Origin: Planctomycetota bacterium
GTDB taxonomy: Bacteria > Planctomycetota > UBA8108 > SXIK01
Length of the DNA: 64,000 nucleotides
Reading direction: 5' to 3'
NCBI GenBank assembly: GCA_965223265.1
Contig: OZ244999.1
Location: 7,520,001-7,584,000 of the forward strand
Position numbers and translations under genes: made by a program. The notes beneath the pieces are model-generated. The model was not told the origin of the DNA. It was given only the letters and a program-made list of their open reading frames with translations, and searched no databases. Position 1 is the stretch's first letter, and the number at the start of each line of letters is the position of its first letter. Positions 48,206 through 63,781 of this stretch are shown here, piece by piece.

Positions 48206-49834
48206 TCAAGAATCTTTCGTCTGCTCTGGCTCTGCTGTGGAACGGGGCTCGTCGTTATAAAACGGCAGCACCCATTCGCGAGCGTCGCCGCCCTCGGTCG
48301 CCCGCTCGAAATGAAGACGCACCTTCTTCTCGACTATATCGTTGTTGAGATATGGTAGCCCAAGACAGTTCCAGAGTCGCTGCGCCGTCGCACCAGTGGG
48401 ACGTCGACAAAAAGTGGAAAACTCATCGCAGCGCCCGTCAAGGAAGTCGATGAGATCGTTCGCCCAGTAGACTTCGTTTGGTGTACACGACGGTCTCTCG
48501 GCGGTGAACTGCAGTCGTGCGAACGAGCAGACGAAATCCGCTTCCTCATGGTTGGTGGAGTGACCAAAGCGTATGCGGATGCGGTATTCGCCGCCACCTG
48601 CAGCTAGCAGGTGTTCAATCGGAGGATTTCGCGCACCGACGAGATGAGGCAAGAAACGATGGTTCAGACAGTCCGAGATGCGCTGGCGCTGCTCGGCAAC
48701 GCTACGCTGCGAGTCGTCGAGCGGCGCGTCGGGGAATCTCTCGAAGAGCGAAAGGTCGATATCGAACTCCCTCTCCTCCTCGCGATCACGTATGTCGAAC
48801 CATGTGCACGTCTGCTCAGAGACGATGTCGCCAGCCGCAAGCTCGTAGCAAACACCAGGAACGAACGCTTCGGTTCTATGCTCACACCCCCACTGCATCG
48901 CGACCTCCCGCTCAATCGTGACGCGGTCCTGCACGCGGATGGGAAACAGGACGCGGTTCCACGCCGGGTCAACCTCCTGCGGGAAGCAGATGCCCTGCCC
49001 GCCGATCAGTCGAACGACGCGCGGGTCGCGCCACAGGTCGAGCAGAGGTTCCGGCGGGGGACCCAAGTCGTCCAGTAGACCCACGTCATCGTCGTCATCG
49101 AGGGCTTCCAGAAAGTCGCGCGCTTCGTCGTTGTCACCGTCGAGCGGCGCGTACGCATCGTGAACGTCGTCGTACACCGCTTCGATGCAGGCGTCTAATC
49201 GTTGCCGCCGCTCGTCATGGCTCTGCGCCGCCAGCATCGACATGGTCGCCCCGCCCTCGTTCAGTGTGGTCAGAAAACAGACCGTCGAGGGGTCGTCAGC
49301 GAGAAACTTCTTGGAGAGCTCGACGCGGACTTCCGGGTGATAGAACGGCAAGACAGCGTCGGCTTCGTTGACGAACGTCTCCCGCTCGCCGCGTACAACA
49401 AGCACCATTACATCGTCTTCGTTCGTTGCCGCGGTTTCGGGGTTGAAGAAACCTTCAAGCACCAGTCCGCTCAAGTCGTAGGTTTCGCCTTCACGGAGAT
49501 ACGTGATGGAGACGCCTCGGAGGAATTCTCGCATCGTGCGGTCCAAGAAACGGAGGCTTTCCGGAAGCACGAGACGAGGCCGCGTTTCGAGCTCGCGCCA
49601 AAGACGCGCCAACGTGTAGGGGTCAAGGTGGTCGGTGTGGGCATGCGACACGAAGATCGCGTCGAGCGGCTCGAACGCAGGCGCATCATAGCGCAGGCGC
49701 GGGAACCGGCCTTGAAGATCGCCAACGATGTAATCGGAAAGCCAAGGATCGCCAAGAAGGCGCACCGGCTCAGCGCGCGCCGTTGTTTCCATCTCCAGAA
49801 GAAACGCACTATGACCGAGCGACGTGACTTTCAT
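48206..49834 (-). CDS. Metallo-beta-lactamase fold hydrolase with long uncharacterised C-terminal region
   Basis: LGHSAFL, DPWL and SHAHTDHLD (HxHxDH). Its start overlaps the upstream stop (ATGA at 49834-49831). Confidence 0.82.
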   Translation of the reverse strand: MKVTSLGHSAFLLEMETTARAEPVRLLGDPWLSDYIVGDLQGRFPRLRYDAPAFEPLDAIFVSHAHTDHLDPYTLARLWRELETRPRLVLPESLRFLDRTMREFLRGVSITYLREGETYDLSGLVLEGFFNPETAATNEDDVMVLVVRGERETFVNEADAVLPFYHPEVRVELSKKFLADDPSTVCFLTTLNEGGATMSMLAAQSHDERRQRLDACIEAVYDDVHDAYAPLDGDNDEARDFLEALDDDDDVGLLDDLGPPPEPLLDLWRDPRVVRLIGGQGICFPQEVDPAWNRVLFPIRVQDRVTIEREVAMQWGCEHRTEAFVPGVCYELAAGDIVSEQTCTWFDIRDREEEREFDIDLSLFERFPDAPLDDSQRSVAEQRQRISDCLNHRFLPHLVGARNPPIEHLLAAGGGEYRIRIRFGHSTNHEEADFVCSFARLQFTAERPSCTPNEVYWANDLIDFLDGRCDEFSTFCRRPTGATAQRLWNCLGLPYLNNDIVEKKVRLHFERATEGGDAREWVLPFYNDEPRSTAEPEQTKDS

Positions 49835-50397
49835 GTAACTCCAGAGTGTGGCCGCGGGCAGTACGCTCCGCGACTGTAGTTCTCGCTGTCGAGCCCAAAT
49901 CCGCGATTAAACCGCGCGCGGTAGTTCTCCCAAGCAACCATCGCGGTCAACTCAACCAGCTGCGCTTCGTCGAACGTCTTCCAAAGCTCCGCGAAGAGCA
50001 CATCATCAACGTCAGCCGGCGTATCGGTCATGGCATCCGCGTATCGCAGACAAACCTTTTCGACGGACGAGAAAACCTCGCTGTGCTCATAGTCCCCAAG
50101 CGCCTCGAGCGCCTCGGTCGTCAATCCCTGTTCTCTGCCCACGGCAGAACCGATGTCGATTCAGAAAAGACATCCAACGCGCATCGCCACCCGGACTTGC
50201 AAAAGGCTCTTCAACTTCGGATCGAGCCGCTGGGCGCCCGTCAGAGCGGTCTCCATCTCAGCGAATCCCTTCAAAACTCTCGGGTGGTGCGCCGCGATGC
50301 GAACACTTGCGGGGACGGTACCAAACTTCCGGCGCAACGCCCAATACACAATCCGCGCAAACACATTCCGTGCCGGGGAACCTTGAATGCGAGCCAT
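49831..50397 (-). CDS. AhpD/carboxymuconolactone decarboxylase family protein with in-frame UGA (CxxU), candidate selenoprotein, 188 aa
   Basis: ORFs 50161-50397 and 49831-50142 are in one frame (567 nt). The junction reads GGA TGT CTT TTC TGA ATC GAC ATC GGT TCT = G-C-L-F-U-I-D-I-G-S. Downstream come F...E...L.YA..MT, F.E.QLVELT..VAWEN.RARFN. Confidence 0.85.
50130..50150 (-). promoter_or_regulatory. Candidate bacterial SECIS-like hairpin
   Basis: GTTCTGCC-GTG-GGCAGAGAAC starts 11 nt after the UGA. It forms an 8-bp stem with a 2-nt bulge and a small apical loop starting with G. Confidence 0.5.
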
Positions 50398-50772
50398 CGT
50401 TTACCTCTGTCAACGATCCTGCCGAGCTCGACTCCCTCGCTCGCCCACGCGAGCCGAGGGATCTGTCCATGTGATCAGATTCCAAGAATGGTAGGGCGTC
50501 AGAGGGGGAGAGAACAAGTCTGGCCTGCTCATCTACTGCGGTCGTCTAGCGCCCCCCAGCTACCGAGAAGGATCAAGAACACGAGTGGCGTCGTCAACCA
50601 GCATCACCGATCGTAGTCCATCATGATCATCCGGACGAGCGAGTACTCACGAACGTTCCCACCGACCCGCTGAGCCGCCCCGATACCTCGCCGCGGGTCG
50701 ACGTGCTCGAACGTGGCGGAGAGTAGTGCCCAGCCTCTACCGGTAGCGATCGAGGCTCGCTACCATGGCGTC

Positions 50773-51582
50773 ATGGCCTGGACGCTCTGCTTGAACACTA
50801 GCACGATCAAACCGCAGCCACTTCTCGAGAAGGTGCGTCTGAGCGCCGAGGCGGGATTCGAAGCGATCGAGCTGTGGATCAACGATGTCTACGAATTCGT
50901 CGGTCGTGGTGGCGAAGTCCGCGATCTTGAGAAAGCTCTGGCAGACTCGGGACTCCGTGTTCCCTGCATGATCGCTCTGAAGGGGTGGGGTGACGCGAGC
51001 GAAGAGGAATACCCACAGGCACTCGAGGAGGTGAAGCGGCGCATGGAGCTGTGCGCCCGCCTTGGCTCGCCCTACGTCGTCACCACACCGCCCCGCTCGC
51101 CATGCCCGGTGGACCAAGTCACGCGGCGCTACGGGGATGTCCTCGCCATCGGACGCGCGGTGGGCGTTACGCCGACGTTCGAGTACCTAAGCTTCAGCCG
51201 TTCCGTCTCGCGCCTCGACGCCGCCTGGCAGATCGTTCAAGACACAGGCGCTCGTGACGCGACGCTGATCGTTGATGCCTTCCACAACTGGAACAGCGGA
51301 TCGACGTGCGACGATTTGAGCAAGATCCCCGGCGAGCGCGTCAGCCACTACCACATCGACGATGCTCATCCGGACAAACCGCCGCTCACCCAGCTTGATC
51401 CCGACCGCGTCATGATTGGCGACGGGGCCATCGATCTCGCGGCGGAAATCCAGGTGCTGCGCGACATCGGCTACGAAGGCGCGATCAGCCTTGAACTTTT
51501 CAACGAGGAACTCTGGGCGCAGGATCCGCGCGATGTTCTACGCCTCGGCTTGGAGCGTATGCGGGCGCTGCTCGAAACTTAG
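50773..51582 (+). CDS. Sugar phosphate isomerase/epimerase (IolI/AP-endonuclease-2 fold)
   Basis: LNTSTI, AGFEAIELW, FEY, DAFH, HYHIDD, DRVMIGDG and GYEG.ISLELFN. Confidence 0.9.
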   Translation: MAWTLCLNTSTIKPQPLLEKVRLSAEAGFEAIELWINDVYEFVGRGGEVRDLEKALADSGLRVPCMIALKGWGDASEEEYPQALEEVKRRMELCARLGSPYVVTTPPRSPCPVDQVTRRYGDVLAIGRAVGVTPTFEYLSFSRSVSRLDAAWQIVQDTGARDATLIVDAFHNWNSGSTCDDLSKIPGERVSHYHIDDAHPDKPPLTQLDPDRVMIGDGAIDLAAEIQVLRDIGYEGAISLELFNEELWAQDPRDVLRLGLERMRALLET

Positions 51583-51741
51583 CAGCCCGTTGAAAAAGTC
51601 ATTCGGCCGAGAAACCGGCCTCTTCGCGCCCAGCTCGACCGCGTCAATACTCGAAAATCTCAGAGATTACCTGCGTTTGCCGCGGCCGATCTGGACGCGA
51701 AGAGACCAGTTTTCGGCTCGAAGCACTTTTTCAACGGGCTG
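51583..51741. mobile_element. MITE copy 2 (159 bp, perfect 17-bp TIRs, TTAG target-site duplication)
   Basis: CAGCCCGTTGAAAAAGT ... ACTTTTTCAACGGGCTG, flanked by TTAG at 51579-51582 and 51742-51745. Reverse complement of copy 1 with a 13-bp shorter centre. Confidence 0.88.
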
Positions 51742-51850
51742 TTAGTCCAACCGAGCGGCTGCGAAACGGCGGCAAGCAGAGTCTGTAGCGCGAATTGGGA
51801 GTGCGACCTCTGAACGCGCTAACCGGGCGCACAGAACCGAGTCTCGAGAA

Positions 51851-53749
51851 CTACGCGAAGTAAAACATCATGAAGATCGCCACCGCGGCCAGCAGCCCCG
51901 CCCAAAATCGATCTTCGCTGCAGATACCTATGAGCGGCACGTCGGCCGCCCCTTCGGCGGCCCGCCGCCGTACATTGGTGAGCGCCGCTTTGGCGAAAAG
52001 CGCCCACGTGAAGAGTGCAGCCACCCAAGCGCTCACTGTGGAGCTCAGCGTGCCGGTGTAGACGAGAATGCCGAGAACGATCCATAGGAGCAGTGCCGCG
52101 CCGACGCCCAAAAAACCTCGCTTGAGGGCGGCCGGATCGTGGCCGCCGAGGTCCGTCCAAGTGAGGCGAGACCTCTCGTCACCGCCGGCCGCGTCGTCGC
52201 CATGCTGGGCGTCCGCATTCGATTGCGTCAGAAGACTGACGACCACGTGCGCAACGGCGGCGCAAATCGCCGCGACGAAGACCGAGTGCATGAAATTGAG
52301 CTCACGCCCAAACGTCTCACTGAGACTGGTGAGTTGACCGCTTGCAACCAAGTCTTTGTAGAGCGGTGGCAATCCATACGACACCAAGATGCCGATCACG
52401 ATCGACGCAATCGCCCCGGGCGAGGTCGCACGGCGCCAGAACATCCCGAGAGCGAAGGCAACGACCACGCCAGCGACGAGCTTTCCTTGGTGGCTGGCGA
52501 TCTGCAGGAAGAAGTGGTCCTCTGAGTTTGGATCCATGGTAAAGATCGTCAGTGCTGCCGAGGCAAAGATAAAGAAAGCGATCGCGACACTACCGACCAG
52601 AATGAGCTCGCGTTCTCCCGCCCCCCGGCGGACGTAGCGCTTGTAAAAGTCAAACGTGAAAATGGTCGCCGCTGAATTCAACATCGAATCGATCGACGAC
52701 AGAATCGCACCGACCACTCCTGCAGCGACAAGCCCGACGACGCCGAAACCCACAGGGGCGACGACGGTCTTGAGAAGTTCGGTGAAGGCCGCGTCAGCAT
52801 CACTTTCGATGCCGCGGGCCTGGAAGAGATAGAACGCTGCGATGCCACCACCGATCGACATGAACGGAATCAACAACTTGAAGAAGCCAGCGATGATGAT
52901 GCCAAGACGCGCTTCGCTGTCGCTGCGCGCTGCCAGGGCCCGCTGCACGATGAATTGATTCGTCCCCCAGTAATAGAAGTGGAGCACCATGAGCCCGCTG
53001 AGGACGCCGGACCACGGCAAGTCGGCGTGGTCTGAGGGCTGAAAGAGGCGCATGAGTCGCTCGTCGCCACGCGCCGCATCCATCGCCCGCATACCGGCCC
53101 AGCCGCCGATCTCAGGCTGCGCGAAGGTCAGCACTGCGACCACGATGCCCGCGATGAGCATGAGGACCGACTGGATCACGTCGGTGACGATCACTGCTTT
53201 GAGACCGCCGACGATGGTGTAGGTGCCGGTGACCACCGCCATCAAGACAATGCCGAGCGTGTAGTACGTCTGATCAATCGGCGCACCCGCTTCCTGCTGC
53301 AATAGAACATTGAGTGAACGCGAGCCGATGTAGAAACCGGGCACCGTTTGGATCACGACGATCACCGCGAGCATGATCAGCGCGTAGAGGACGCGGCTCG
53401 TCTCACCGTAACGCCGGCCCAAGTAATCACTCAGGGTGTAGATGCCAAGCTTGCGGTAGACGGGCAAAAAGCCGTAGCAGAGAAGAAGGAGGCCGGCGAT
53501 GGCGCTGATCTCAAAGTGACTCTGAGCAAAGCCGACGCCAAAGCCGACGCCCATCATGCCGATGATATGATTCGCCGAGACGTTGGAACCGAAGATCGAG
53601 GCGGCGACGCCCCACCAGCGCGTCGTGCGTCCCGCGAGGTAATAGTCGGACGCGGTCTCTTCCTTGCGCCCCGCCCAAAGTCCCGCGCCCATGACGAGGA
53701 GGAGCGAGCCGAAGAAGATGACGAGGTCGAACGGGGTGAGCACATTCAT
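51851..53749 (-). CDS. Sodium:solute symporter (SSS family, sugar/inositol type)
   Basis: DYYLAGR...WW....SIF.SN.S, YT..GGLKAVI.TDVIQ, YWGTNQFIVQRALAA and A..SSIDS.LNS.ATIFT.D.YK. Confidence 0.92.
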   Translation of the reverse strand: MNVLTPFDLVIFFGSLLLVMGAGLWAGRKEETASDYYLAGRTTRWWGVAASIFGSNVSANHIIGMMGVGFGVGFAQSHFEISAIAGLLLLCYGFLPVYRKLGIYTLSDYLGRRYGETSRVLYALIMLAVIVVIQTVPGFYIGSRSLNVLLQQEAGAPIDQTYYTLGIVLMAVVTGTYTIVGGLKAVIVTDVIQSVLMLIAGIVVAVLTFAQPEIGGWAGMRAMDAARGDERLMRLFQPSDHADLPWSGVLSGLMVLHFYYWGTNQFIVQRALAARSDSEARLGIIIAGFFKLLIPFMSIGGGIAAFYLFQARGIESDADAAFTELLKTVVAPVGFGVVGLVAAGVVGAILSSIDSMLNSAATIFTFDFYKRYVRRGAGERELILVGSVAIAFFIFASAALTIFTMDPNSEDHFFLQIASHQGKLVAGVVVAFALGMFWRRATSPGAIASIVIGILVSYGLPPLYKDLVASGQLTSLSETFGRELNFMHSVFVAAICAAVAHVVVSLLTQSNADAQHGDDAAGGDERSRLTWTDLGGHDPAALKRGFLGVGAALLLWIVLGILVYTGTLSSTVSAWVAALFTWALFAKAALTNVRRRAAEGAADVPLIGICSEDRFWAGLLAAVAIFMMFYFA

Positions 53750-54021
53750 CGGGCGACTGACTCCGGCTGGCAAGCTTGGGCGCGACGATCGACGCTACAG
53801 CGGACGGCATCGCGCGCGACGCGCGACGCCCCATTCGCGAAGGCGCCATTCTGACCAAAGGCCGCCAGGCGGTCAACGCGTCGCAAACGAGAGATCGAAA
53901 CGATCTACGTGGCCTCGTGCCTCGGGGACGCGGCCCGCCTGTCGCAGCACGCGTTCTTTCGTGATTCTCACCACCCCGCGTGGGCGATTCCAAGTGGAGA
54001 CGATCAGGGAAGCAGGCGCAG

Positions 54022-55401
54022 TCAACGCTTCTCGTCGCTGACGACGACGCCTTCGATGACAACGCCGATGCAGTGCGATGTATACTCGAGCGGATCGCCG
54101 TCGTAGAGCGCCAAGTCGCCGTCCTTACCGACGACGAGCGAACCGACACGGTCGTCGACGCCAAGAATGCGCGCAGCATCGATCGTCACCGTCTCGAGCG
54201 CCTCTTCGGGGGAGAGGCCGTTCGCCGCCAGCAGTGCGGCTTCGAACAGCACGACGCGCGTTTTCGGAACGTAGCTTTCGTAACCGCTCTGTAGTGCCAC
54301 CCGGATTCCTGCCGCGCGCAGCGTTGCGGCCGTCTCAAAGCTCATGTTCTCAAGGTCTCGATGCGCGCGAGCCATGGTCGGGTGAAGGATCACCGCAGCG
54401 CCAGCAGCTTTGATCTCGTCAATGAGCAGATAGGCTTCCGCCGCGCCGTCAAGGACAAGCGGAAACTTGAACTCGCGCGCGAGCCGCAGCGCGCTGGCGA
54501 TATCCTGAGCGCGGTGTGCCGTGACGAGAAGCGGCAGCTCGCCGCCGAGCACGCGGGCGAGGACTTCAAGCCCAAGGTCGCGCGGCAGCGCCTCGGCGTC
54601 ACTGTCCCCCTTTGACGCGCCGTCCGACTCAGGCACTACACCCTGTGAATCTTCCGGGTCCTTAGCCTCCGCCTGCGCCTTCGCGGCGGCCACACGCGCT
54701 GTACGGTATTCCTGCGCCTTGAGCAGCTGGGCTCGGAGGAGCGCCACCATCTTACCGCGCGTGCCCGGCGACCCGTCGTCCTTACGCGCCTCGGTGCTCA
54801 ATGTCGCCGCCAGCATCTTCGTCTCGATCAAGACCGCCTCTTCGACGCTGTCGCCGCGCGTCTTGACGACCATCGTTTGACCAGAGATGAGCTCGCCCGG
54901 CGCGTGACCCGTGTGCAGCGTCGTGACGCCGAAACCGCGAATCCACTCGACGAGTCGCTCGTGAACGTTGTAGGCGTCCAGGGCGCGCAGTTCCGGCTGC
55001 AGAGGTGCCGAACGCTCAAGCTGGTCGCTGTCTTGGGGCTGGTTCAAGTAACCGGCCAACCCGACAACGCTGTGGGCGTCGACAAGACCTGGAGTCACCA
55101 CCGCCGCCTCAAGCACGCGAAAACCTTCGGGAACGCGCAGATCGCTAGCACTCCCGACTGCCGCGATCTTTCCGTCGCGCACGATGACCATGCCGTCATC
55201 GATGGGCGGTCCTACCATCGTGTACACCTTCGCGCCGCGGACCGCGACTTGCGCGGCAACGTGGCACGGTGAGGCGAACACACTCGCCAAGACCATGCCG
55301 ACAAGAATCGACGTCGGCAGAAGCTCCGAGTCGCGCACGCCGTCAAACACAGCACGTCGCGAGGTCTCCGACGTCTTGATCGTCGTCTTGCTCAACCTCA
55401 T
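54022..55401 (-). CDS. Amidohydrolase family protein (probable non-catalytic partner)
   Basis: PGLVDAHS (second His absent), G.LISGQ, AL..VT..AA.ILG..DRVGSL..GKD.D. The start overlaps the upstream stop (ATGA). Confidence 0.85.
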   Translation of the reverse strand: MRLSKTTIKTSETSRRAVFDGVRDSELLPTSILVGMVLASVFASPCHVAAQVAVRGAKVYTMVGPPIDDGMVIVRDGKIAAVGSASDLRVPEGFRVLEAAVVTPGLVDAHSVVGLAGYLNQPQDSDQLERSAPLQPELRALDAYNVHERLVEWIRGFGVTTLHTGHAPGELISGQTMVVKTRGDSVEEAVLIETKMLAATLSTEARKDDGSPGTRGKMVALLRAQLLKAQEYRTARVAAAKAQAEAKDPEDSQGVVPESDGASKGDSDAEALPRDLGLEVLARVLGGELPLLVTAHRAQDIASALRLAREFKFPLVLDGAAEAYLLIDEIKAAGAAVILHPTMARAHRDLENMSFETAATLRAAGIRVALQSGYESYVPKTRVVLFEAALLAANGLSPEEALETVTIDAARILGVDDRVGSLVVGKDGDLALYDGDPLEYTSHCIGVVIEGVVVSDEKR

Positions 55402-56741
55402 CGCGCATGCTCCTCAAAGCAGCAGAAGTAGGGTTCTTGGTCGCGGCCGGCGCCGTAGCCACCGACGGCGTGCAGTCGATCCACTGGGTCACGGCGATCA
55501 AAGACCCTCTCGCCTTCGACCCAGGTCTCGAGCACTTTGGTATAGACGCTCAAAGGTTCGCCGCTCAGGATCGCGAAATCGGCGTCTTTTCCCGCAGTCA
55601 ACGAGCCGATGCGATCTCCCAGATCGAGCATCTCTGCACCAGCAAGAGTGACCGCCTTGAGAGCCCCCGCCGGCGTCATTCCGGCGCGCACGGCAAGCGC
55701 CGGCGTGCGCAGGAAGATGCGCGAGTCGGTGATCCAATCATCGGTGTGAAAAGCGACGAGAACCCCCGCCTGCTCAAGAACCGCGCCGGTACGATAGACC
55801 ATGTCGACGGCTTCGAGCTTACCGCCTGGGCTATCGATCAGAATGACGGAGCAGGGAGCACCGGCCGCGGCGATCTGCGGCGCTACCTTCCAGCCTTCGC
55901 TGGCGTGCTGCAGCACAACGCGGAATCCGAACTCTTTGGAGAGTCGCAGCACGGTGAGAATGTCGTCATGTCGATGCGTGTGGTGGTGCACGATGCGTTT
56001 GCCGTCAAGCACCTCGACGAGCGCTTCGAGACCAAGATCTCGAGGTGGAAGCTTGTCGGGATCACCGGCGGCGCGCCGCACCTTGTCACGGTACTCCTGC
56101 GCCGCGACAAACTTCTGCCGCACAAGCGCGGCCGACTTGCCACGCGTACCGGGAAACGGAGGACTTCGCATCGAGTTGGTACCGTTCGCCATCTTGAGGC
56201 CACCCATGGGATCGCCGTTGGCATCCCGAATCATCAGATCTTCGATCGTCTTACCACGGCGCAGCTTGACGTAGATGGTTTGACCGCTGATGAGGTGTCC
56301 AGAACCCGGCATGATGTTGAGCGTTGTCAGTCCGCCGGCAACTGCACGTCGAAAGCCAGCGTCGAGGACGTTCGTCGAGTCATAGATGCGGACTTCCGGC
56401 TGAATGGGCCCGGAGCCATCGCCGCCGCCGATGCCCCCGAGGTGACTGTGCGTGCAGATCAGGCCTGGTAGGATGACCTTGCCGCTGACATCATGGAGCG
56501 TGGCACCCGCGGGGATCTCGGTGTCGCCGGCCGCGCCGACCGCCTTGATCTTTTTGCCTTCAATCAAGAGCACACCGTTTTCGATGGCGTCGCCGTCGAT
56601 CGGGTAAATCTTCGCCCCCGTGAACGCGTGGCGATCGGCCGCACGTGCCGTAACCCCGAGCGCCGCAGCACCGATGCAAACCAAACAGCAGAAACACACT
56701 AAACGGGACGTTCGGCGCAAGACGTTCTCCTTACAAGGCAC
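55398..56741 (-). CDS. Secreted amidohydrolase family protein
   Basis: PGLICTHSH, LKMANGTN, HTHRHDD, QHASE, HTDD and GSL..GKDADF. Signal-peptide-like N-terminus. The start is uncertain. Confidence 0.88.
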   Translation of the reverse strand: MPCKENVLRRTSRLVCFCCLVCIGAAALGVTARAADRHAFTGAKIYPIDGDAIENGVLLIEGKKIKAVGAAGDTEIPAGATLHDVSGKVILPGLICTHSHLGGIGGGDGSGPIQPEVRIYDSTNVLDAGFRRAVAGGLTTLNIMPGSGHLISGQTIYVKLRRGKTIEDLMIRDANGDPMGGLKMANGTNSMRSPPFPGTRGKSAALVRQKFVAAQEYRDKVRRAAGDPDKLPPRDLGLEALVEVLDGKRIVHHHTHRHDDILTVLRLSKEFGFRVVLQHASEGWKVAPQIAAAGAPCSVILIDSPGGKLEAVDMVYRTGAVLEQAGVLVAFHTDDWITDSRIFLRTPALAVRAGMTPAGALKAVTLAGAEMLDLGDRIGSLTAGKDADFAILSGEPLSVYTKVLETWVEGERVFDRRDPVDRLHAVGGYGAGRDQEPYFCCFEEHAR

Positions 56742-57039
56742 AGCCTATCTCAATGTTTTGGTTTCGGTACACGGGGGCAAGAACTTGGGGAAGATTTCGA
56801 CCACTACCAGCATGGGCGATGGCACCCAGGGACTCAAGCTCGGGAACTCCGATGGAATCGAAAAGAGCCACCAGAAAATCGCTCAACCGGTTGCGGGCGC
56901 CTGACGTACACTCATAGGTTGAGGGCGAAGCCGAATCCTCGACCTCGCCGGGAACAAGCCTCCGCACACCCGGCGCACACGGGGGCGCGCCGCCCGCCAG
57001 ACGCATCACGATCACGACACAACGGTAAGGCGAGCCTCA

Positions 57040-58509
57040 ATGTTTCACGCGCGACGCATTTGCTCGGTTCTCTGCGCTGCTCTCGCGGCGATCTCCGCAC
57101 TCATGGCAGAAGTCTCTGTGGCCGTAGCGGCTGAGCGACCCAACATCGTCTTTCTGTTCGCCGACGATCAGGCTCCTTGGGCGCTCGGTGAAGCCGGGCA
57201 TCCCCACGCGGCCACACCGCATCTCGATCGTCTCTTCCGAGAAGGCGCGTACCTCAAGAACGCCTTCACAACGACGCCAGTCTGTAGCCCGTCGCGCGCC
57301 AGCTTGCTGGCAAGCCGTTACGGCAGCGAACTCGGTGTCACCGATTGGATCAATCCTCGTAAAGAACCTGAGCACGGTCTTGATCCGAGCATGCTGACTT
57401 GGCCCGAGATCCTCCAGCGTGCCGGCTACCACACGGGGCTAGTTGGCAAGTGGCACCTTGGCACGGCGGATCGTTTTCATCCGACGCAAAATGGCTTCGA
57501 TTATTTCATGGGCTTTCGCCCCGGCGGCGCGAAAACTAAGGATCCCGTACTCGAGGTGGAAGGGAAGCAGGTTCAGTTACACGGCCTGACGACCGACCTT
57601 CTGGCCGACGACGCCGTCCGCTTCTTGGAACGCAACAAAGGACGCACGTTTCTTCTCTGTCTGCACTTTCGTGCCCCGCACACACGGTGGTTGCCCGTCG
57701 CCGACGAGGACTGGGCGCCGTACGACGGTCTCGATCCCCAGATCCCCAACCCTGACTACCGCGGTCTTGACGTCGAACGCGTCAAGCGGGTCACACGCGA
57801 GTACCTCGCGAGCGTCAGCGGCGTCGATCGCAACGTCGGCCGAGTGCTCGCGGCGCTCAAGCGCCTTGGCCTCAAAGACAATACCATCGTGATCTACTCG
57901 AGCGATCACGGCTACAACATGGGCCACAACGGCATTTGGCACAAAGGCAACGGCCATTGGATTCTCAAGGATCCACCGGCCGGAACAACAAACGTGCCGA
58001 AGAACCAGCGACCGAACATGTACGACCACTCGCTCCGCGTGCCGACAGCAGTTCGTTGGCCAGGTGTGATTCGTCCAGGGACGGTGATCTCCGAAACGAT
58101 TTCCAACCTCGACTGGTTTCCAACCATTCTCGCCATGGCATCCGTCACGAAACCGGCCGCGGTGCAGATTCGCGGCAAGGATTTCCTGCCGCTCCTACGC
58201 GGCGAGGCGACGCCGTGGGACAACGACTTCTACGCCGAGTACAGCACGCATCATCAGTCGCGCACGCACATGCGGATGTACCGAACACCGAGTTGGAAGC
58301 TCATGCGCGATTTCCTGAATAGTGATCGGGACGAACTCTACGACCTCAAGAACGATCCGGCAGAGACGACGAACCTCATCCGCTCGACGCGGCCGGGACT
58401 CGCGCACCTCGTGACCGAGCTCGACGCTAAGATTTTGCAGCACATGAAAGCCAACGGCGACCCGGCCCTCGACCTCGCACACCGCCGATCGTCGTCAAGC
58501 TCGGAGTAG
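57040..58509 (+). CDS. Sulfatase (formylglycine-dependent, S1)
   Basis: RPNIVFLFADD, CSPSRASLL (CxPxR), GYHT..VGKWHLG, SDHG and ELYDL..DP.E..N. Signal peptide present. Confidence 0.95.
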   Translation: MFHARRICSVLCAALAAISALMAEVSVAVAAERPNIVFLFADDQAPWALGEAGHPHAATPHLDRLFREGAYLKNAFTTTPVCSPSRASLLASRYGSELGVTDWINPRKEPEHGLDPSMLTWPEILQRAGYHTGLVGKWHLGTADRFHPTQNGFDYFMGFRPGGAKTKDPVLEVEGKQVQLHGLTTDLLADDAVRFLERNKGRTFLLCLHFRAPHTRWLPVADEDWAPYDGLDPQIPNPDYRGLDVERVKRVTREYLASVSGVDRNVGRVLAALKRLGLKDNTIVIYSSDHGYNMGHNGIWHKGNGHWILKDPPAGTTNVPKNQRPNMYDHSLRVPTAVRWPGVIRPGTVISETISNLDWFPTILAMASVTKPAAVQIRGKDFLPLLRGEATPWDNDFYAEYSTHHQSRTHMRMYRTPSWKLMRDFLNSDRDELYDLKNDPAETTNLIRSTRPGLAHLVTELDAKILQHMKANGDPALDLAHRRSSSSSE

Positions 58510-58516
58510 GCGCCAC

Positions 58517-59590
58517 ATGGTCGCAGAACGCCGCTACCCCGAGGTCGAAGTCGCCGGCACGCCCTACGAGATGGGCGAACAGCTGGGTGAGGCGGCTCGC
58601 GAGCTCATCCGCGGCTTCGCCGCTTGCGCGCTCGAACGCGTTCGCGTGACAGCTCCCGTGTCGGGCGAAGCGGCGCTGGACGTCGCACACTCGTGCATTC
58701 CTTTCGCGCGCGCGTACGCGCCACACCACTTAGAGGAGCTCGAAGGCGTGGCGTCGAGCTCGGGGGTGGCGCTCGGAGAGCTGATGTTGCTGCAGGTACG
58801 AAATCAGTTGATGGCAGACGATGACTCGGGCTGCACGTCGCTCGCTGCGGCATCGTCGATCGCAGCTAAACCGCCGCTCGGCGGCGCCAGGAGCGGACTT
58901 GTCGGACAAAACTGGGACAATGACCCTGAACTCGATCGCTGGACGATCGTGCTGCGCCGGCGTCCAGTAAGCCAGCCATCATTTATCAGCGTCACGCAAG
59001 CGGGCCTGGTCGCCTATATCGGGGTGAATGACCGCGGTGTCGGTGTCTGCCTCAACACGCTGCCCGCACCGAGTCGTCGTCTCGGAGTGCCGCACTACTT
59101 CATCGTCCGCGCGATGTACGAAACTGACTCTCTCGACGGCGTCGTCGACGCGGCACGCCGAGCGGAGCGCGCCATCCCGGCGAACGTCATGCTGACGACG
59201 CCGGATGGACCAGCAGACCTCGAGATGACGATCGACGACGTCAAGGTGCTGCGCCACGACCAGTTCGTCGTCCACACCAACCACTGCCTCCATCCCGATC
59301 TGGAGCCGATCAATAGCTCTTTTCCCGAGCTCATCGATTCACACGCGCGTTTGGCGCGGGTTCGCGCACTGCGCAGCGGTGTTCCTTCGAGCTCAAACGT
59401 CGAGACGTTCAAGAAGCTGCTGCGCGATCATGACAACTATCCACGCTCAATCTGCCGACACCCGAACGACGATCCGCAGCACGGGTTTTGGCGCAGCGTC
59501 TTCTCGGTCGTCATCGAGGCGGACACAGGACGCCTGCACGTCAGTCGCGGCAATCCGTGCGAGAACTCCTACGAGATCTATGAGCTCTGA
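58517..59590 (+). CDS. Peptidase C45 / acyl-CoA:6-aminopenicillanic acid acyltransferase-like Ntn hydrolase
   Basis: G.PYE.G.Q.G, autoprocessing GCTS, GQNWD, G.N..GV....N, HTNH, SICRH and GNPC. Confidence 0.88.
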   Translation: MVAERRYPEVEVAGTPYEMGEQLGEAARELIRGFAACALERVRVTAPVSGEAALDVAHSCIPFARAYAPHHLEELEGVASSSGVALGELMLLQVRNQLMADDDSGCTSLAAASSIAAKPPLGGARSGLVGQNWDNDPELDRWTIVLRRRPVSQPSFISVTQAGLVAYIGVNDRGVGVCLNTLPAPSRRLGVPHYFIVRAMYETDSLDGVVDAARRAERAIPANVMLTTPDGPADLEMTIDDVKVLRHDQFVVHTNHCLHPDLEPINSSFPELIDSHARLARVRALRSGVPSSSNVETFKKLLRDHDNYPRSICRHPNDDPQHGFWRSVFSVVIEADTGRLHVSRGNPCENSYEIYEL

Positions 59591-60518
59591 ACAAGCAGCG
59601 ACAACGAAAACGACTTCTGCGTTACGCGGCGTCTTTCCCGCCGCGCTGACGATGTTCACCGCCGACGGCGAGCTCGACGAAGAGGCCACCGCCCGCCATG
59701 TCGAACATCTCATCGCCTGTGGCGTCGATGGAATCGTTGCTGCGGGCTCGTCCGGCGAGTTCGTCGCCATGACCGAAGCGGAGCACGAGCGCGTGATCGA
59801 AATCGCGGTTGCCGCCGCCGCGGGCCGGGTTCCAGTTGTCGCCTCGAGTGGGCGCTACAGCACGCGACTCTCGATCGCCCTGACGCAGAAGGCCGAAGCC
59901 GTCGGCGCCGACGCGGCTCTCCTGACCCTTCCGTACTATCAGAAACCACCCAAGGCATCGGTCGTCGAGCACTTTCGCTGCATTCGACGTCACACGTCGC
60001 TGCCGCTTCTGGTCTACAACAACGCAATCTTTTCGGGCTGCGCGGAACTCACGCCCCGCGATCTCACTTCTCTTTGGCAAGAAGGCGTGGTCTGCGGTGT
60101 CAAGTCGACGACGCAGAGCGTCGTTCCGGTACACGACCTTCTTCACCTCACCGACGCGAGCTTCCGGGTCTTCTACGGCTCGTTCCAATCGCCGATGGAA
60201 GCGCTCTTGGGTGGCGCGCACGGCTGGATCAGCGGCTTCTTAAACTTCCTGACGCGCGAATGTGTCGAACTCTACGGCGCCTGCGCTTCTGGCGACGTCG
60301 CAAAGGCGCGCCACATCTGGAACGACGTCCTCCTGCCGTTCAAGCAGCTCCACGCGCACGGGCTTCTAGGTGACGTCAACGACCTGGCGATCTATCGCGC
60401 TGGGCTGGACCTCATGGGTCTTCATGGCGGCTTCTCTCGCCAGCCGTTCGAGCCACTGGACGCGGCGCAGCGAGAGAAACTCGCCGTGCAGATGCGCGAC
60501 GCCGGACTCCTCGCATGA
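59580..60518 (+). CDS. Dihydrodipicolinate synthase/N-acetylneuraminate lyase family aldolase
   Basis: GVFPA.LT.F, GSSGEF, PYY, LVYN, GVKS (Schiff-base Lys) and GA.GWISG. Overlaps the upstream gene by 11 nt. Confidence 0.9.
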   Translation: MSSEQAATTKTTSALRGVFPAALTMFTADGELDEEATARHVEHLIACGVDGIVAAGSSGEFVAMTEAEHERVIEIAVAAAAGRVPVVASSGRYSTRLSIALTQKAEAVGADAALLTLPYYQKPPKASVVEHFRCIRRHTSLPLLVYNNAIFSGCAELTPRDLTSLWQEGVVCGVKSTTQSVVPVHDLLHLTDASFRVFYGSFQSPMEALLGGAHGWISGFLNFLTRECVELYGACASGDVAKARHIWNDVLLPFKQLHAHGLLGDVNDLAIYRAGLDLMGLHGGFSRQPFEPLDAAQREKLAVQMRDAGLLA

Positions 60519-61735
60519 AGATCACCCGCATCAAGACAAAGCTGGTCCAGCTCGGGCCGCGGAACTCCGTCTTCGTCGCTGTGGAGACGAACGAGGGCAT
60601 CACCGGCTATGGCGAAACGCTCTACAAACGCAAATCGAAGATGGTCGAAGCGGGAATCCATGAACTCGCTCGTTACCTGGTCGGTAAAGACCCGACCCGG
60701 ATCGAGGATCACTTCGAAAAGATGTACCGCGATGCCTTTCTGGTCGGCGGCGGCCTTCAGACAGCGCCAATCAGCGCTGTCGAGATCGCGCTTTGGGACA
60801 TTCTGGGGAAGAGCCTAGGCGCTCCAGTTTACAAGCTGCTCGGGGGACCGACGCGCGACCGCATCCCGGTTTACTGCCATTGTCTGTGCGGTCCGACGCC
60901 GGAAGCGTTCGCAGCCAACGCGAAAGATTGTGTCGACCGCGGCTATCACGCGCTGAAAGCGACGCTGCCTCTCTTCTACGGCGCTCAAGACGCAGCATAC
61001 GTCGGCGGCGCAGCGCGGAACCCGAGCACGGGACTCGGCAGCTTCGGCTACAGCGGTACGCATGGTGAGATCGACCGCAGTCACAAGGAGACCGAAATCC
61101 TCGCGCCGGACACGTTCGCCCGCATCCGCGACTTTTTCGTCGCTGCGCGCGAGGCGGTGGGCAGCAGCGTTCACTTGATGCTCGACTGCCACGGACGCCT
61201 AAACGCCACCAACGCCCTCAGACTTTGCGAAGCACTGCGAGATCTCGAGCTCCTCTTTATCGAGGAGCCCGTGCCACCGGAGAACGAGACAGCACTCGCG
61301 TTCGTAACCGAGCGTAGTCCTGTACCGATCGCAACCGGTGAGCGCTGGTCGACGATCTACGACGCGCGGCGATTTCTCGGCAAGCTCAACCTCGCCGCTG
61401 CGCAGCCGGACGTCGTCTGGTGCGGTGGTCTCGCGCAGGCAAAAAAGATCGCCGCACTCGCAGAGGCCGAATACGTCGGCCTGGCGCCACACAACCCGAA
61501 CGGACCCGTCGCCACTGTCGCAACCCTGCACCTCGCGGCGAGCGTGCCAAATCTTCTCATCGTCGAGACCATCGGTTCCCAAGAGCTACGTGCCGTCGAA
61601 GCGAAGGTCGTGCAGCCGCTGCCACAAATAGACGATGGCTGTTTGCTGCTTCCGTGCACCCCAGGGCTCGGCATGGAGATCGACTGGGACGCTTGCGACC
61701 GCTACCCGTACCAGCCCTTCGAGGGTTGGAGGTGA
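60515..61735 (+). CDS. Mandelate racemase/enolase superfamily acid-sugar dehydratase (DgoD-like)
   Basis: ETNEGITGYGE, AVEIALWDILGK.LGAPVYKLLGG, LDCH, FIEEP, ATGER, QPD...CGG, APHNP and PGLG. Confidence 0.9.
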   Translation: MKITRIKTKLVQLGPRNSVFVAVETNEGITGYGETLYKRKSKMVEAGIHELARYLVGKDPTRIEDHFEKMYRDAFLVGGGLQTAPISAVEIALWDILGKSLGAPVYKLLGGPTRDRIPVYCHCLCGPTPEAFAANAKDCVDRGYHALKATLPLFYGAQDAAYVGGAARNPSTGLGSFGYSGTHGEIDRSHKETEILAPDTFARIRDFFVAAREAVGSSVHLMLDCHGRLNATNALRLCEALRDLELLFIEEPVPPENETALAFVTERSPVPIATGERWSTIYDARRFLGKLNLAAAQPDVVWCGGLAQAKKIAALAEAEYVGLAPHNPNGPVATVATLHLAASVPNLLIVETIGSQELRAVEAKVVQPLPQIDDGCLLLPCTPGLGMEIDWDACDRYPYQPFEGWR

Positions 61736-61836
61736 TGGTCCACAGAGTCTGGGCAAGCGAGCTGTTCGTAGGACGCGACGCCGGTGCCGACCTACTCGCC
61801 GCCACGACGCGGTGAGCACCCTTGCTCGATCAGCGG

Positions 61837-62520
61837 TCACACCGTGATCGTTTCGCCAAATTCGAGAACGCGTGCGCTGCGGCCGTTGGCTGCGACTTTC
61901 TCAACGAAAACGTTCGGATCGACGTAGATCAGGTCGAACGTCTTGTAGTGCATGGGGATCGCCAGCTGCGGCTGGAGAAACTCAACCGCTTTCGCGGCGT
62001 CGTCGATGCCCATCGTGAAGTTGTCCCCGATTGGCAAAATGGCAACATCGATGGCGTCGAGCTCGCCGATCAGTTTCATGTCAAGAAAGAGCGCTGTGTC
62101 GCCGGCGTGGTAGAGCGTTTTGCCGTCCGCGGTGATCAGAAGACCAGCGGGATTGCCGAGCTCGACGATCCCGTCACCGGTCTCAAGACCCGAGCCGTGG
62201 TGGGCGAGCGTCAGCTTCAACCGTCCGAAATCGAACTGTCGCGCGCCGCCGAGATGCATCGGATGAACCTTTGCGCCTTGGGCGCCGCAGTGCGCAGAGA
62301 GCTCGTACGTGGCGACGATCGTGGCGTCATTTCGTTTCGCGATGTCGACCGCGTCGCCGAGATGATCGCCGTGCGCATGTGTGACCAGGACGTAATCACA
62401 CTCCACATCCTCGGCCTTAACGGCTGCGTTCGGATTGCCGCTCAAAAATGGGTCGATGACGAGACGATGCGAAGCCGTTTCGACGAGAAACGCGGAGTGG
62501 CTCCAGTAGGTCAATTTCAT
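61837..62520 (-). CDS. Metal-dependent hydrolase (UPF0173, MBL fold)
   Basis: HSAF, IDPFLSGNP, THAHGDH.GD, YHAGDT, LPIGD.FTMG and PMHY.TF. Confidence 0.92.
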   Translation of the reverse strand: MKLTYWSHSAFLVETASHRLVIDPFLSGNPNAAVKAEDVECDYVLVTHAHGDHLGDAVDIAKRNDATIVATYELSAHCGAQGAKVHPMHLGGARQFDFGRLKLTLAHHGSGLETGDGIVELGNPAGLLITADGKTLYHAGDTALFLDMKLIGELDAIDVAILPIGDNFTMGIDDAAKAVEFLQPQLAIPMHYKTFDLIYVDPNVFVEKVAANGRSARVLEFGETITV

Positions 62521-62806
62521 GTCGGGCAACCCCCGTTGTCAGGATCAACTTGCAGTGGAATCAGGATCAGAGAGGGTAGAGACTACCTCGGCTGCGGTCA
62601 TGCCCGCAAGACGCGGCGCTGCTTAATGAGCACTGGTTGTCGCCAGGGCTGATCGGCCCGCGCCAGCGCGGACATTCACGGTCTCTACAGTTCGGCAGAA
62701 CACTGGGAATCGACACGGAGCGGACTTTTGTTCTTGTCTCCGCGACACACCCAAAGCTAACTTGAGTGACGTGTTGCTCATCACATTTTTCGGATCGGAG
62801 GCAGTC

Positions 62807-63781
62807 ATGATTGACGCGCGCAAAGCGGTCGTGTCGCTGGTCGCCGGCGTTCTCTGCAGCTCGGCGTTCGGAACAGATGTCGGACAGGAGGCGCCAGCGC
62901 TTCACGCCAAGGAGTGGCTCAACGCAGCCCCAGGGTTCTCTTGGTCGCAGCTCAAGGGACGACTCATCCTCGTCGAGAACTGGGCCACCTGGTGAGGCCC
63001 TTGCATCACGTCGATCCCGCACCTCAACGATCTCAAACGTGAGTACGAGGGTAGGGGATTGACGGTCATCGGAGTTGCCGATGAACCCAAGGGACGGATC
63101 CAACGTGTCGTCAAGAACGAGGAAATCGAATACATCGTCGCGCTGCGCTCCGGCTCGGCGTTTAACTCACGTGCCTACCCCACGGCATGGCTCGTCAGCC
63201 CCAAGGGCAAAGTCGTCTGGAAAGGGCACCCCGCTAGTCTCGACGGCAAGAAGATCGAGAAGTTTCTCAAGGGCGCGCGCTTCGAGCCGAAGTTTTCTCT
63301 GCCGAGGAAACTGAAAGCAGCGTCTCGATACCTGGGCAAGAGGGATTGCGCCAGAGCGATTCGCGAGCTCGAGAAACACGTGGCAGGGAAAGACGAAGCC
63401 GTCGCGCGGGTGGCAAAGGACACCATTCGGGAACTGAAGCGTTACGCGAAGCGCGAATACAAGTTCGCCGGTAGGTTCGCTAAGTCTGGCGAATACGCCG
63501 ACGCGGTCGCGATTCTCGAGTTTCTTGAGAAGTCGTTCAAAGGCTTCGAAGCAGGAGAGCGAGCCAAAGTCAAGCTGAAGGCCTGGCGTGACGACAAGAA
63601 GATCAAACTCGAAATCGAAGCCAGCTCTCAGATCGCCAAAGCAAGGACGCTGATTTCACGTCGGCAGTACGCGCCGGCGTATAAAGTCCTTCAGAATGTA
63701 GCGCGAAGAAAGAAGTACAAGGACACGCGGGCAAAAGAAATTGCCGTGAAGTTAGCGAAAGAGATCAGACGCTACGTTTAA
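62807..63781 (+). CDS. Secreted TlpA/thioredoxin-like disulfide reductase with in-frame UGA (UxxC) and basic helical C-terminal domain, candidate selenoprotein, 324 aa
   Basis: ORFs 62762-62995 and 63059-63781 join in frame: TGG GCC ACC TGG TGA GGC CCT TGC = W-A-T-W-U-G-P-C, then IPHLN.L...Y...GLTVIGV and cis-Pro YPT...V...GKVVW.GHP. GGAGG RBS precedes the ATG at 62807. Signal peptide present. Confidence 0.87.

Follow-up and report, generated by a model that had tools for sequence, protein, structure and literature searches.

A putative hairpin-bridged selenocysteine insertion signal in a TlpA-like gene of a planctomycete

The 64,000-nucleotide (nt) stretch of a Planctomycetota genome analysed here (the window; positions 7520001–7584000 of a genome that consists of a single contig of 9,179,496 base pairs (bp), i.e. 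9.18 Mb, with a G+C content of 60.8%) contains two genes that are each interrupted by one in-frame UGA, an AhpD/CMD-like gene on the minus strand and a TlpA/ResA-like gene on the plus strand (table 1). An earlier note, made from the sequence alone, had placed both UGA codons exactly on redox-active cysteine (Cys) positions, and this has been borne out: in both predicted proteins conserved domains span the residue encoded by UGA (written U), and homologues have Cys in its place. The question pursued here is how these codons may be marked for the insertion of selenocysteine (Sec), in particular in the TlpA-like gene, the UGA of which is followed not by a standard bacterial Sec insertion sequence (SECIS) but by two hairpins side by side.

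Table 1. Genes, codons and RNA structures treated in the text, with positions in the window or, where so marked, in the genome.
Feature	Position	Strand	Details
TlpA/ResA-like thioredoxin-fold gene, predicted selenoprotein	62807..63781	+	ATG 62807 (or TTG 62762), 324 codons from ATG, stop TAA 63781
Sec codon UGA of the TlpA-like gene (predicted)	62993..62995	+	motif W-A-T-W-U-G-P-C, first Cys position of CxxC
Hairpin 1, putative bridging hairpin	63009..63064	+	56 nt, begins 13 nt after UGA; −26.5 kcal/mol, z −4.0
Hairpin 2, putative SelB-type hairpin	63066..63084	+	UCAUCGG-AGUUG-CCGAUGA; loop 63073-63077, 77 nt from UGA, effective 21 nt
AhpD/CMD-like (YciW-related) gene, predicted selenoprotein	49831..50397	−	188 codons, one in-frame UGA; ATG 50397, stop TGA 49833-49831
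Sec codon UGA of the AhpD-like gene (predicted)	50161..50163	−	motif C-L-F-U, second Cys position of CxxC, U79
SECIS hairpin of the AhpD-like gene (predicted)	50133..50149	−	UUCUGCC-GUG-GGCAGAG, 7 bp; GUG loop 50140-50142, 18 nt after UGA
Gene following the AhpD-like gene	48206-49834	−	542 codons; overlap ATGA at 49831-49834
CY[IV][U] protein gene	7852231-7852776 (genome)	−	182 residues, no Pfam or NCBIfam family
SGC(F/L)GGG[U]G protein gene	4725875-4726885 (genome)	+	~340 residues
Paralogue of the preceding gene	TGA at 6361732 (genome)		
tRNA-Sec(UCA)	6669903-6669994 (genome)		one copy
tRNA-like gene	2022659-2022732 (genome)		two-letter anticodon call
SelD gene	3459482-3461782 (genome)		767 residues, no in-frame stop

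When its UGA is read through, the TlpA-like gene encodes a protein (...VENWATW[U]GPCITSIPHLN...) that ends in a long Lys-rich extension of roughly 170 residues. The AhpC-TSA domain covers residues 40–153 and spans U (45.5 bits versus a cut-off of 26), as do the Redoxin (39.1 versus 26.6 bits) and Thioredoxin domains. Scores against the NCBIfam models NF041054 (‘ResA-like WAxxUGC motif-containing protein’; 34.6 bits, cut-off 300) and NF002854 (ResA; 55.3 bits, cut-off 170) fall below the cut-offs, so the protein belongs to a separate subfamily distinguished by its Lys-rich tail. A protein similarity search with the N-terminal part as translated in the standard code gave weak leads only, with a best score of 0.89. 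The in-frame UGA aligns with the redox Cys of homologues, and all six paralogues in the same genome have Cys at this position (6/6). Among 40 relatives searched, full-length orthologues of 36–42% identity were found in 27 other genomes, each with one in-frame TGA (27/27). The comparisons below use the window gene and 19 orthologues (L036–L055), i.e. 20 genes, all of which carry the motif W-A/R-T-W/T/Y-[U]-G-P-C; 79 Cys homologues with WAT[WT]CGPC served as negative control.

In accordance with constraints for bacterial SECIS (bSECIS) elements listed in a passage of PMC13188914, we looked for a loop of 3–9 nt with G among its first two positions, a UGA-loop distance of 16–37 nt, a stem of 4–16 bp (implemented as at least 4 bp) and a folding energy of −7.5 kcal/mol or below. 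Of the 15 predicted selenoprotein genes of the genome, discussed further below, the TlpA-like gene of the window is the only one in which no hairpin qualifies within this spacing, and the impression of the earlier note that its signal is unlike a standard SECIS was therefore correct. Among the 20 TlpA-like genes, a hairpin compatible with the strict model exists in only seven (13 have none), and only four reach −7.5 kcal/mol, which does not exceed the background level. The long stem with a C-rich 12-nt loop that the earlier note had described is indeed the minimum-energy fold of a 63-nt excerpt, but with 80 nt a different hairpin of 56 nt is obtained, and it is the latter (hairpin 1) and not the C-rich-loop fold that the orthologues share.

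One long hairpin is the minimum-energy fold in 20 of 20 TlpA-like loci. Folded up to the foot of the hairpin that follows it, hairpin 1 is 51–57 nt long, begins 12–16 nt after the UGA and has energies of −12.2 to −33.4 kcal/mol, with the apical loop at 37–40 nt from the UGA; in the window gene this loop is AACG, 40 nt from the UGA and with no G at its first two positions. The normalised energy of 60-nt windows sliding along the genes, when averaged, has its global minimum at offset +15, and the best window at +9 to +24 ranks among the top 16 of 291 in 18/20 genes (the exceptions being L037 and L041). Permuting synonymous codons within each gene over the region +12 to +78 (200 permutations) showed that the native RNA is more stable than its permutations in all 20 genes (z −2.03 to −4.57, mean −3.07), with the native energy unmatched by any permutation in 12 of them. 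Since the same procedure yields a mean z of −0.11 for the 79 Cys homologues, only three of which reach z ≤ −2, hairpin 1 is under selection and is associated with the UGA.

Other structure is also visible around these UGA codons. A second zone of unusually low folding energy lies about 135 nt upstream, close to the 5' end of the TlpA-like genes (near window position 62858), with a mean normalised energy of about −1.8 at offsets −132 to −138. Furthermore, those TlpA-like orthologues that encode U-G-P-C-K-G-Q (L040, L042–L050, L053 and L055) have a small hairpin, GGNCCYUG-CAAGGGNC, at +2 to +17 after the UGA, in which the third positions of two Gly codons covary in part; this hairpin is too near the codon to stay folded during decoding.

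Directly downstream of hairpin 1, every one of the 20 genes has a short second hairpin (hairpin 2). In a 105-nt alignment, RNAalifold predicts it as the sole element, pairing columns 74–80 with 86–92, and all 140 of 140 cells pair over its 7 bp. Columns 76/90 are A-U in 15 genes and G-C in five, columns 78/88 are C-G in 17 and U-A in three, and at the protein level these changes appear as Ile/Asp(GAU), Val(GUC)/Asp(GAC) and Val(GUU)/Asn(AAC). In 500 shuffles of the alignment columns, the pairing, the number of double changes and the covariation score of the native alignment were never reached. The loop reads N-G-U-N-N in 20/20 genes with invariant G and U (AGUUG, CGUGA, GGUCA, AGUUA, AGUCU and similar), which is the consensus given for the SelB-binding apex in a passage of PMC13188914, and with a 7-bp stem and a 5-nt loop hairpin 2 lies within the bSECIS limits for both. 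A strict G-loop hairpin between +60 and +100 is found in all 20 Sec genes versus 24 of the 79 Cys homologues, where it occurs at scattered positions. If hairpin 1 is taken as closed, the effective path from the UGA to the apex of hairpin 2 consists of the 12–16-nt spacer, a linker of 1–3 nt and 7 nt of stem, and the resulting effective spacing of 20–26 nt (20 in 13/20 genes) is inside the canonical 16–37 nt.

An unrelated protein family in the same genome has the same two-hairpin design. The small protein with the motif CY[IV][U] (table 1) keeps its one TGA in the 20 best matches from other genomes (20/20); of the 20 loci fetched, 16 were analysed, three being outside the motif pattern and one containing N. 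In all 16, a first hairpin of 32–38 nt, with loops mostly devoid of an early G, begins 14–17 nt after the UGA and is followed, after a linker of 1–5 nt, by a G-loop hairpin with its loop at +60/61 (GGUCU in nine, GUC in four and GGU in three). RNAalifold predicts this second hairpin unaided, 128/128 cells pair, and compensatory changes replace U-A by C-G in eight sequences and G-C by C-G in two. Here the effective spacing is 22–28 nt. The two families thus differ by 16–17 nt in raw distance (77 versus 60–61 nt) and by about 20 nt in their first hairpins, yet their effective spacings coincide, which we regard as the strongest argument for the first hairpin acting as a bridge.

The genome also encodes the complete set of tRNA-Sec, SelA, SelB and SelD. 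tRNA-Sec scores 70.3 bits in Rfam (gathering score 47), and profile searches of the genome gave 324.1 bits for SelB (cut-off 242.25), 548.1 bits for SelA (cut-off 267.9) and 308.8 bits for SelD (cut-off 125), with no second SelB-like gene above the cut-off. The C-terminal domain of SelB and the tRNAs with a UCA anticodon, to which the earlier note had drawn attention, are both of the usual kind: SelB (652 residues) comprises the EF-Tu GTPase domain, domain 2, the SelB beta-barrel and a C-terminal SelB-wing_3 winged helix (residues 594–640, 63.6 bits), and among the 60 tRNAs listed by ARAGORN the UCA anticodon occurs only in tRNA-Sec. UGA-to-Cys decoding is therefore unlikely. Moreover, TGA is the commonest stop codon; it closes 1989 of the 3329 frames of at least 400 codons in the genome and thus still serves as the main stop, and the four stops in the window from which the earlier note had concluded that the code is not globally reassigned (225, 5655, 11841 and 60518) are TGA in 4/4 cases. 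The machinery is canonical and speaks for ordinary SelB-dependent Sec decoding with no reassignment of the code. As side observations, the ARAGORN output includes one tRNA-like gene whose anticodon is given as two letters and to which no identity is assigned (table 1), and SelD carries a fused N-terminal Pyr_redox_2 (pyridine-nucleotide-disulphide oxidoreductase) domain.

Taken together, we consider it probable, with some room for doubt, that both window genes are genuine selenoprotein genes served by the standard pathway and that the TlpA-like gene uses a hairpin-bridged SECIS. SelD would make selenophosphate, SelA would convert Ser-tRNA-Sec, and SelB would bring Sec-tRNA-Sec(UCA) to the hairpin-marked UGA. 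With the UGA in the A site, hairpin 1 would be situated at the mRNA entrance of the ribosome, where it may stay folded and, as a bridge, place the SelB-binding hairpin 2 at the site of an ordinary SECIS, thereby restoring the geometry for selenium insertion. In the conserved TlpA-like signal, an inserted and selected hairpin would then have pushed a canonical SelB hairpin away from the UGA.

Several observations weigh against this interpretation. The orthologues are related, so that the counts overstate independent support. Hairpin 2 overlaps a conserved protein motif, [IV]-G-V-[TSA]-[DN]-E, and its seven pairs persist in 21–576 of 1000 synonymous permutations per gene (2–58%). For hairpin 1, RNAalifold found no consensus in the first 78 nt of the 20 TlpA-like genes, and the fixed-register pairing count is 75.2% versus 72.3% in shuffles. 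Both results can be ascribed to a pairing register that is not fixed but drifts between ortholog subgroups, and it is because of this drift that folding of individual sequences with synonymous-shuffle controls was used instead. Synonymous shuffling gives weaker z values in the CY[IV]U family (−0.4 to −3.4). Finally, the bSECIS test is unspecific, since, of 600 Cys codons taken at random from long frames, 300 pass it as well and 33% are without any qualifying hairpin.

Could the two hairpins divide their labour differently? SelB may bind hairpin 2 and act from a distance, while hairpin 1 is a pause or roadblock that slows the ribosome or RF2, similar to the Sec-redefinition elements that adjoin some eukaryotic Sec codons. 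The great stability of hairpin 1 (−12 to −33 kcal/mol) would suit this role, as would the location of its base, which falls about at the ribosomal mRNA entry while the UGA occupies the A site, the position of this entry relative to the A-site codon being established knowledge. Pausing would leave unexplained, however, why the same effective window of 20–28 nt recurs in two families with first hairpins about 20 nt apart, and why the linker is always just 1–5 nt, and we therefore regard it as rather unlikely. Alternatively, hairpin 1 itself may be an atypical SelB-binding SECIS, with no loop G and its apex 37–40 nt from the UGA, and hairpin 2 may be incidental or auxiliary. In favour of this, no other local structure in the TlpA-like genes is as strong as hairpin 1, which begins 12–16 nt after the UGA, and passages in two reviews state that some bacterial SECIS deviate from the consensus (PMC13188914, PMC12013277). 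Yet its register drifts between orthologues, whereas hairpin 2 agrees exactly with the SelB consensus in both of two unrelated families, its G-U being invariant and its stem showing compensatory changes, and the only SelB has an ordinary-looking winged helix, which makes this alternative improbable. That near-cognate or suppressor decoding inserts Cys or some other standard residue at the UGA codons, or that the genes are pseudogenes or products of sequencing errors, seems very improbable in view of the full Sec machinery, a sole UCA tRNA that is tRNA-Sec, TGA at the same codon in 27/27 full-length orthologues, selected downstream hairpins that are missing from Cys homologues, and TGA as the commonest stop, even if the inserted residue cannot be told from sequence alone, as the earlier note had pointed out for UGA-to-Cys decoding.

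The second gene in the window, i.e. the AhpD-like gene, appears to be a genuine selenoprotein gene with an ordinary bSECIS. In its readthrough product (...RVGCLF[U]IDIGS...), Pfam CMD (PF02627) matches residues 39–100 and spans U79 with 36.7 bits (cut-off 23); NCBIfam NF053654 (‘YciW-related (seleno)protein’) aligns over its full length (1–172) with 137.9 bits, below the cut-off of 310. The short hairpin with a GTG loop that the earlier note had seen is real, has a folding energy of −8.8 kcal/mol alone and −11.1 kcal/mol in context, and conforms to all four bSECIS constraints. Homologues in the 40 relatives amount to one with TGA and two with Cys (2/3 without a stop). The TGA stop of the gene shares bases with the start codon (ATG) of the minus-strand gene that follows (table 1), which suggests that the two may be co-translated as an operon.

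In our implementation of the bSECIS model, 14 of the 15 genes pass, the AhpD-like gene included, with loops (GUG, GGUC, GGC, CGUGU, CGUGA, GUC, AGUU, GGUCU, GUU, GGA and similar) 16–26 nt after the UGA. In 17 of 18 cases, other thioredoxin-fold UGA sites in relatives are followed within 16–37 nt (at +17, +29, +31 or +33) by a G-loop hairpin with 5 bp or more, with stem-only energies of −5.2 to −13.2 kcal/mol, 14/17 reaching −7.5; this set excludes four pattern matches in other frames (L174 on the plus strand, L176 on the minus strand and the second rows of L177 and L184), and L189 has no site. Minimum-free-energy z-scores of 13 other genes range from +0.3 to −2.7, i.e. short bSECIS hairpins are not singled out by this measure, which is no argument against them. 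A scan of the entire window against Rfam gave no match at gathering thresholds, and around both UGA sites there were only chance miRNA-like matches with E up to 10. Because 14/15 genes pass the bSECIS model, a relaxed or different recoding signal throughout the lineage, as the earlier note had proposed, is not supported; the two-hairpin design is family-specific. Its opposite scenario, in which canonical SelB and tRNA-Sec serve exclusively standard sites, applies with respect to the machinery but not to all sites, with the loops of the TlpA-like and CY[IV]U signals at 60–77 nt.

The expectation of many more such genes in the genome has proved right, and the large selenoproteome of the earlier note holds in moderate form. 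Genome-wide, 89,886 in-frame TGAs with open frames on both sides were scored by codon usage, combined with a local search for paralogues in the same genome with Cys at the TGA and inspection of 373 filtered candidates. This leads to a prediction of at least 15 selenoprotein genes, which is a lower bound because the coding-potential filters retained 4/9, then 6/9 and finally 7/9 seed genes. In 11 of 22 read-through frames examined, a Pfam domain spans U: these are the two window genes, a second CMD/peroxidase-related gene, a ResA-like C-terminal domain protein, Thioredoxin_7, SCO1/SenC, glutathione peroxidase, a HEAT-peroxiredoxin fusion, formate dehydrogenase alpha, and Rdx/SelW-like and OsmC-like proteins. 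A twelfth gene matches the NCBIfam ‘UshA-like (seleno)protein’ (276.4 bits, cut-off 275), and three more belong to no Pfam or NCBIfam family, namely two SC.GG.[U]G paralogues and the CY[IV][U] protein. The remaining seven of the 22 frames were dropped: L028, L030 and L034 have no family match and look off-frame, L031, L032 and L033 turned out to be true stops or a pair of adjacent genes, and in L035 the WD40 matches lie downstream of U, which leaves it unsupported. Family searches of the genome for AhpC-TSA, Thioredoxin and CMD, with TGA-bearing matches in 4/24, 0/8 and 2/6 cases, respectively, revealed no additional selenoprotein gene.

The two SC.GG.[U]G proteins, with the fuller motif SGC(F/L)GGG[U]G, are secreted-looking (table 1). 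Matches come from 33 of 41 related genomes, nearly all with one in-frame TGA, and an ordinary G-loop hairpin is present at +21 in 5/5 matched orthologues; they are a candidate for an undescribed selenoprotein family. It was also seen that selenoprotein genes occur in close pairs, 7570163/7582993 in the window (12.8 kb apart) and 8063760/8072437 (glutathione peroxidase and HEAT-peroxiredoxin, 8.7 kb apart), where by simple arithmetic random placement of 15 genes in 9.18 Mb would give about 0.3 pairs within 14 kb.

Apart from the two-hairpin signal, the finding is ordinary, its protein families and machinery being of known kinds. At least 15 genes make a sizeable but unexceptional set, far under the bacterial record of 46 selenoprotein genes named in a passage of PMC12013277; families such as those found here figure in parts of PMC1794560 and PMC1088965, and planctomycete selenoproteins are already reported in a passage of PMC4807772. 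The TlpA-like protein shares the thioredoxin fold and Sec as the first residue of CxxC with the ‘Thiol:disulfide interchange protein’ and ‘Prx-like thiol:disulfide oxidoreductase’ listed in a section of PMC1794560, and its WATWUGPC resembles the WAxxUGC of NF041054, from which it differs in its sub-cut-off score and Lys-rich tail. The AhpD-like protein has a CMD domain with CxxU in common with AhpD-like proteins (COG2128), the ‘distant AhpD homolog’ selenoproteins and NF053654; its score for the last stays under the curated cut-off, and it has few homologues in the 40 relatives.

As to the RNA signal, hairpin 2 of both the TlpA-like and the CY[IV]U families resembles the bSECIS consensus of Zhang and Gladyshev, as relayed in a passage of PMC13188914, in its stem and N-G-[G/U]-N-N loop, but differs from it in that the loop lies at 77 or 60–61 nt and a conserved hairpin of 51–57 or 32–38 nt stands in between. 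The SECIS of E. coli fdhF has a counterpart in FdhA of this genome, with the loop GGUCU 18 nt after the UGA, and GGUCU is also found as the distal loop in CY[IV]U, whereas two side-by-side hairpins set the TlpA-like and CY[IV]U signals apart. The fdhF element is reportedly a single hairpin that begins at the UGA and is tightly constrained in its spacing. Eukaryotic and archaeal SECIS elements sit in the 3' untranslated region. The signals described here are similar to these and to Sec-redefinition elements in that the signal acts from farther off and a second structure adjoins the UGA; they differ in being located entirely within the coding region, at less than 100 nt, and in going with a bacterial SelB with winged-helix domains.

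According to what is taught on Sec insertion in bacteria, a hairpin must follow the UGA at a short and fixed interval, and this rule underlies selenoprotein gene finders. It also limits the design of recombinant selenoproteins, because the residues after Sec must at the same time encode the hairpin. A literature search confined to a set of open-access papers, to which the original bSECISearch paper (Bioinformatics 2005) does not belong, revealed no account of a bacterial SECIS set apart from its UGA by another hairpin between the two. Passages in reviews mention ‘atypical’ or ‘distinct classes’ of bacterial SECIS, which they leave undefined there (PMC13188914, PMC12013277), and one of these passages counts 13.0% of bacterial selenoprotein genes as ‘atypical’ and missed by bSECISearch (PMC12013277). 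The two-hairpin arrangement, conserved across a bacterial class, provides a concrete and testable structure for one such kind of ‘atypical’ bSECIS.

This suggests that search models could be extended by allowing for an inserted helix, and that the SelB-binding hairpin might be relocated within a coding sequence to a place that suits the design better. Only tentatively would we suppose that hairpin-bridged SECIS elements form a general and so far undefined class, in which the apex may lie 60–80 nt or more from the UGA if an intervening hairpin closes the gap. If so, this class would account for part of the ‘atypical’ genes that bSECISearch misses, and the strict rule for the spacing between UGA and SECIS would concern three-dimensional geometry rather than linear distance.

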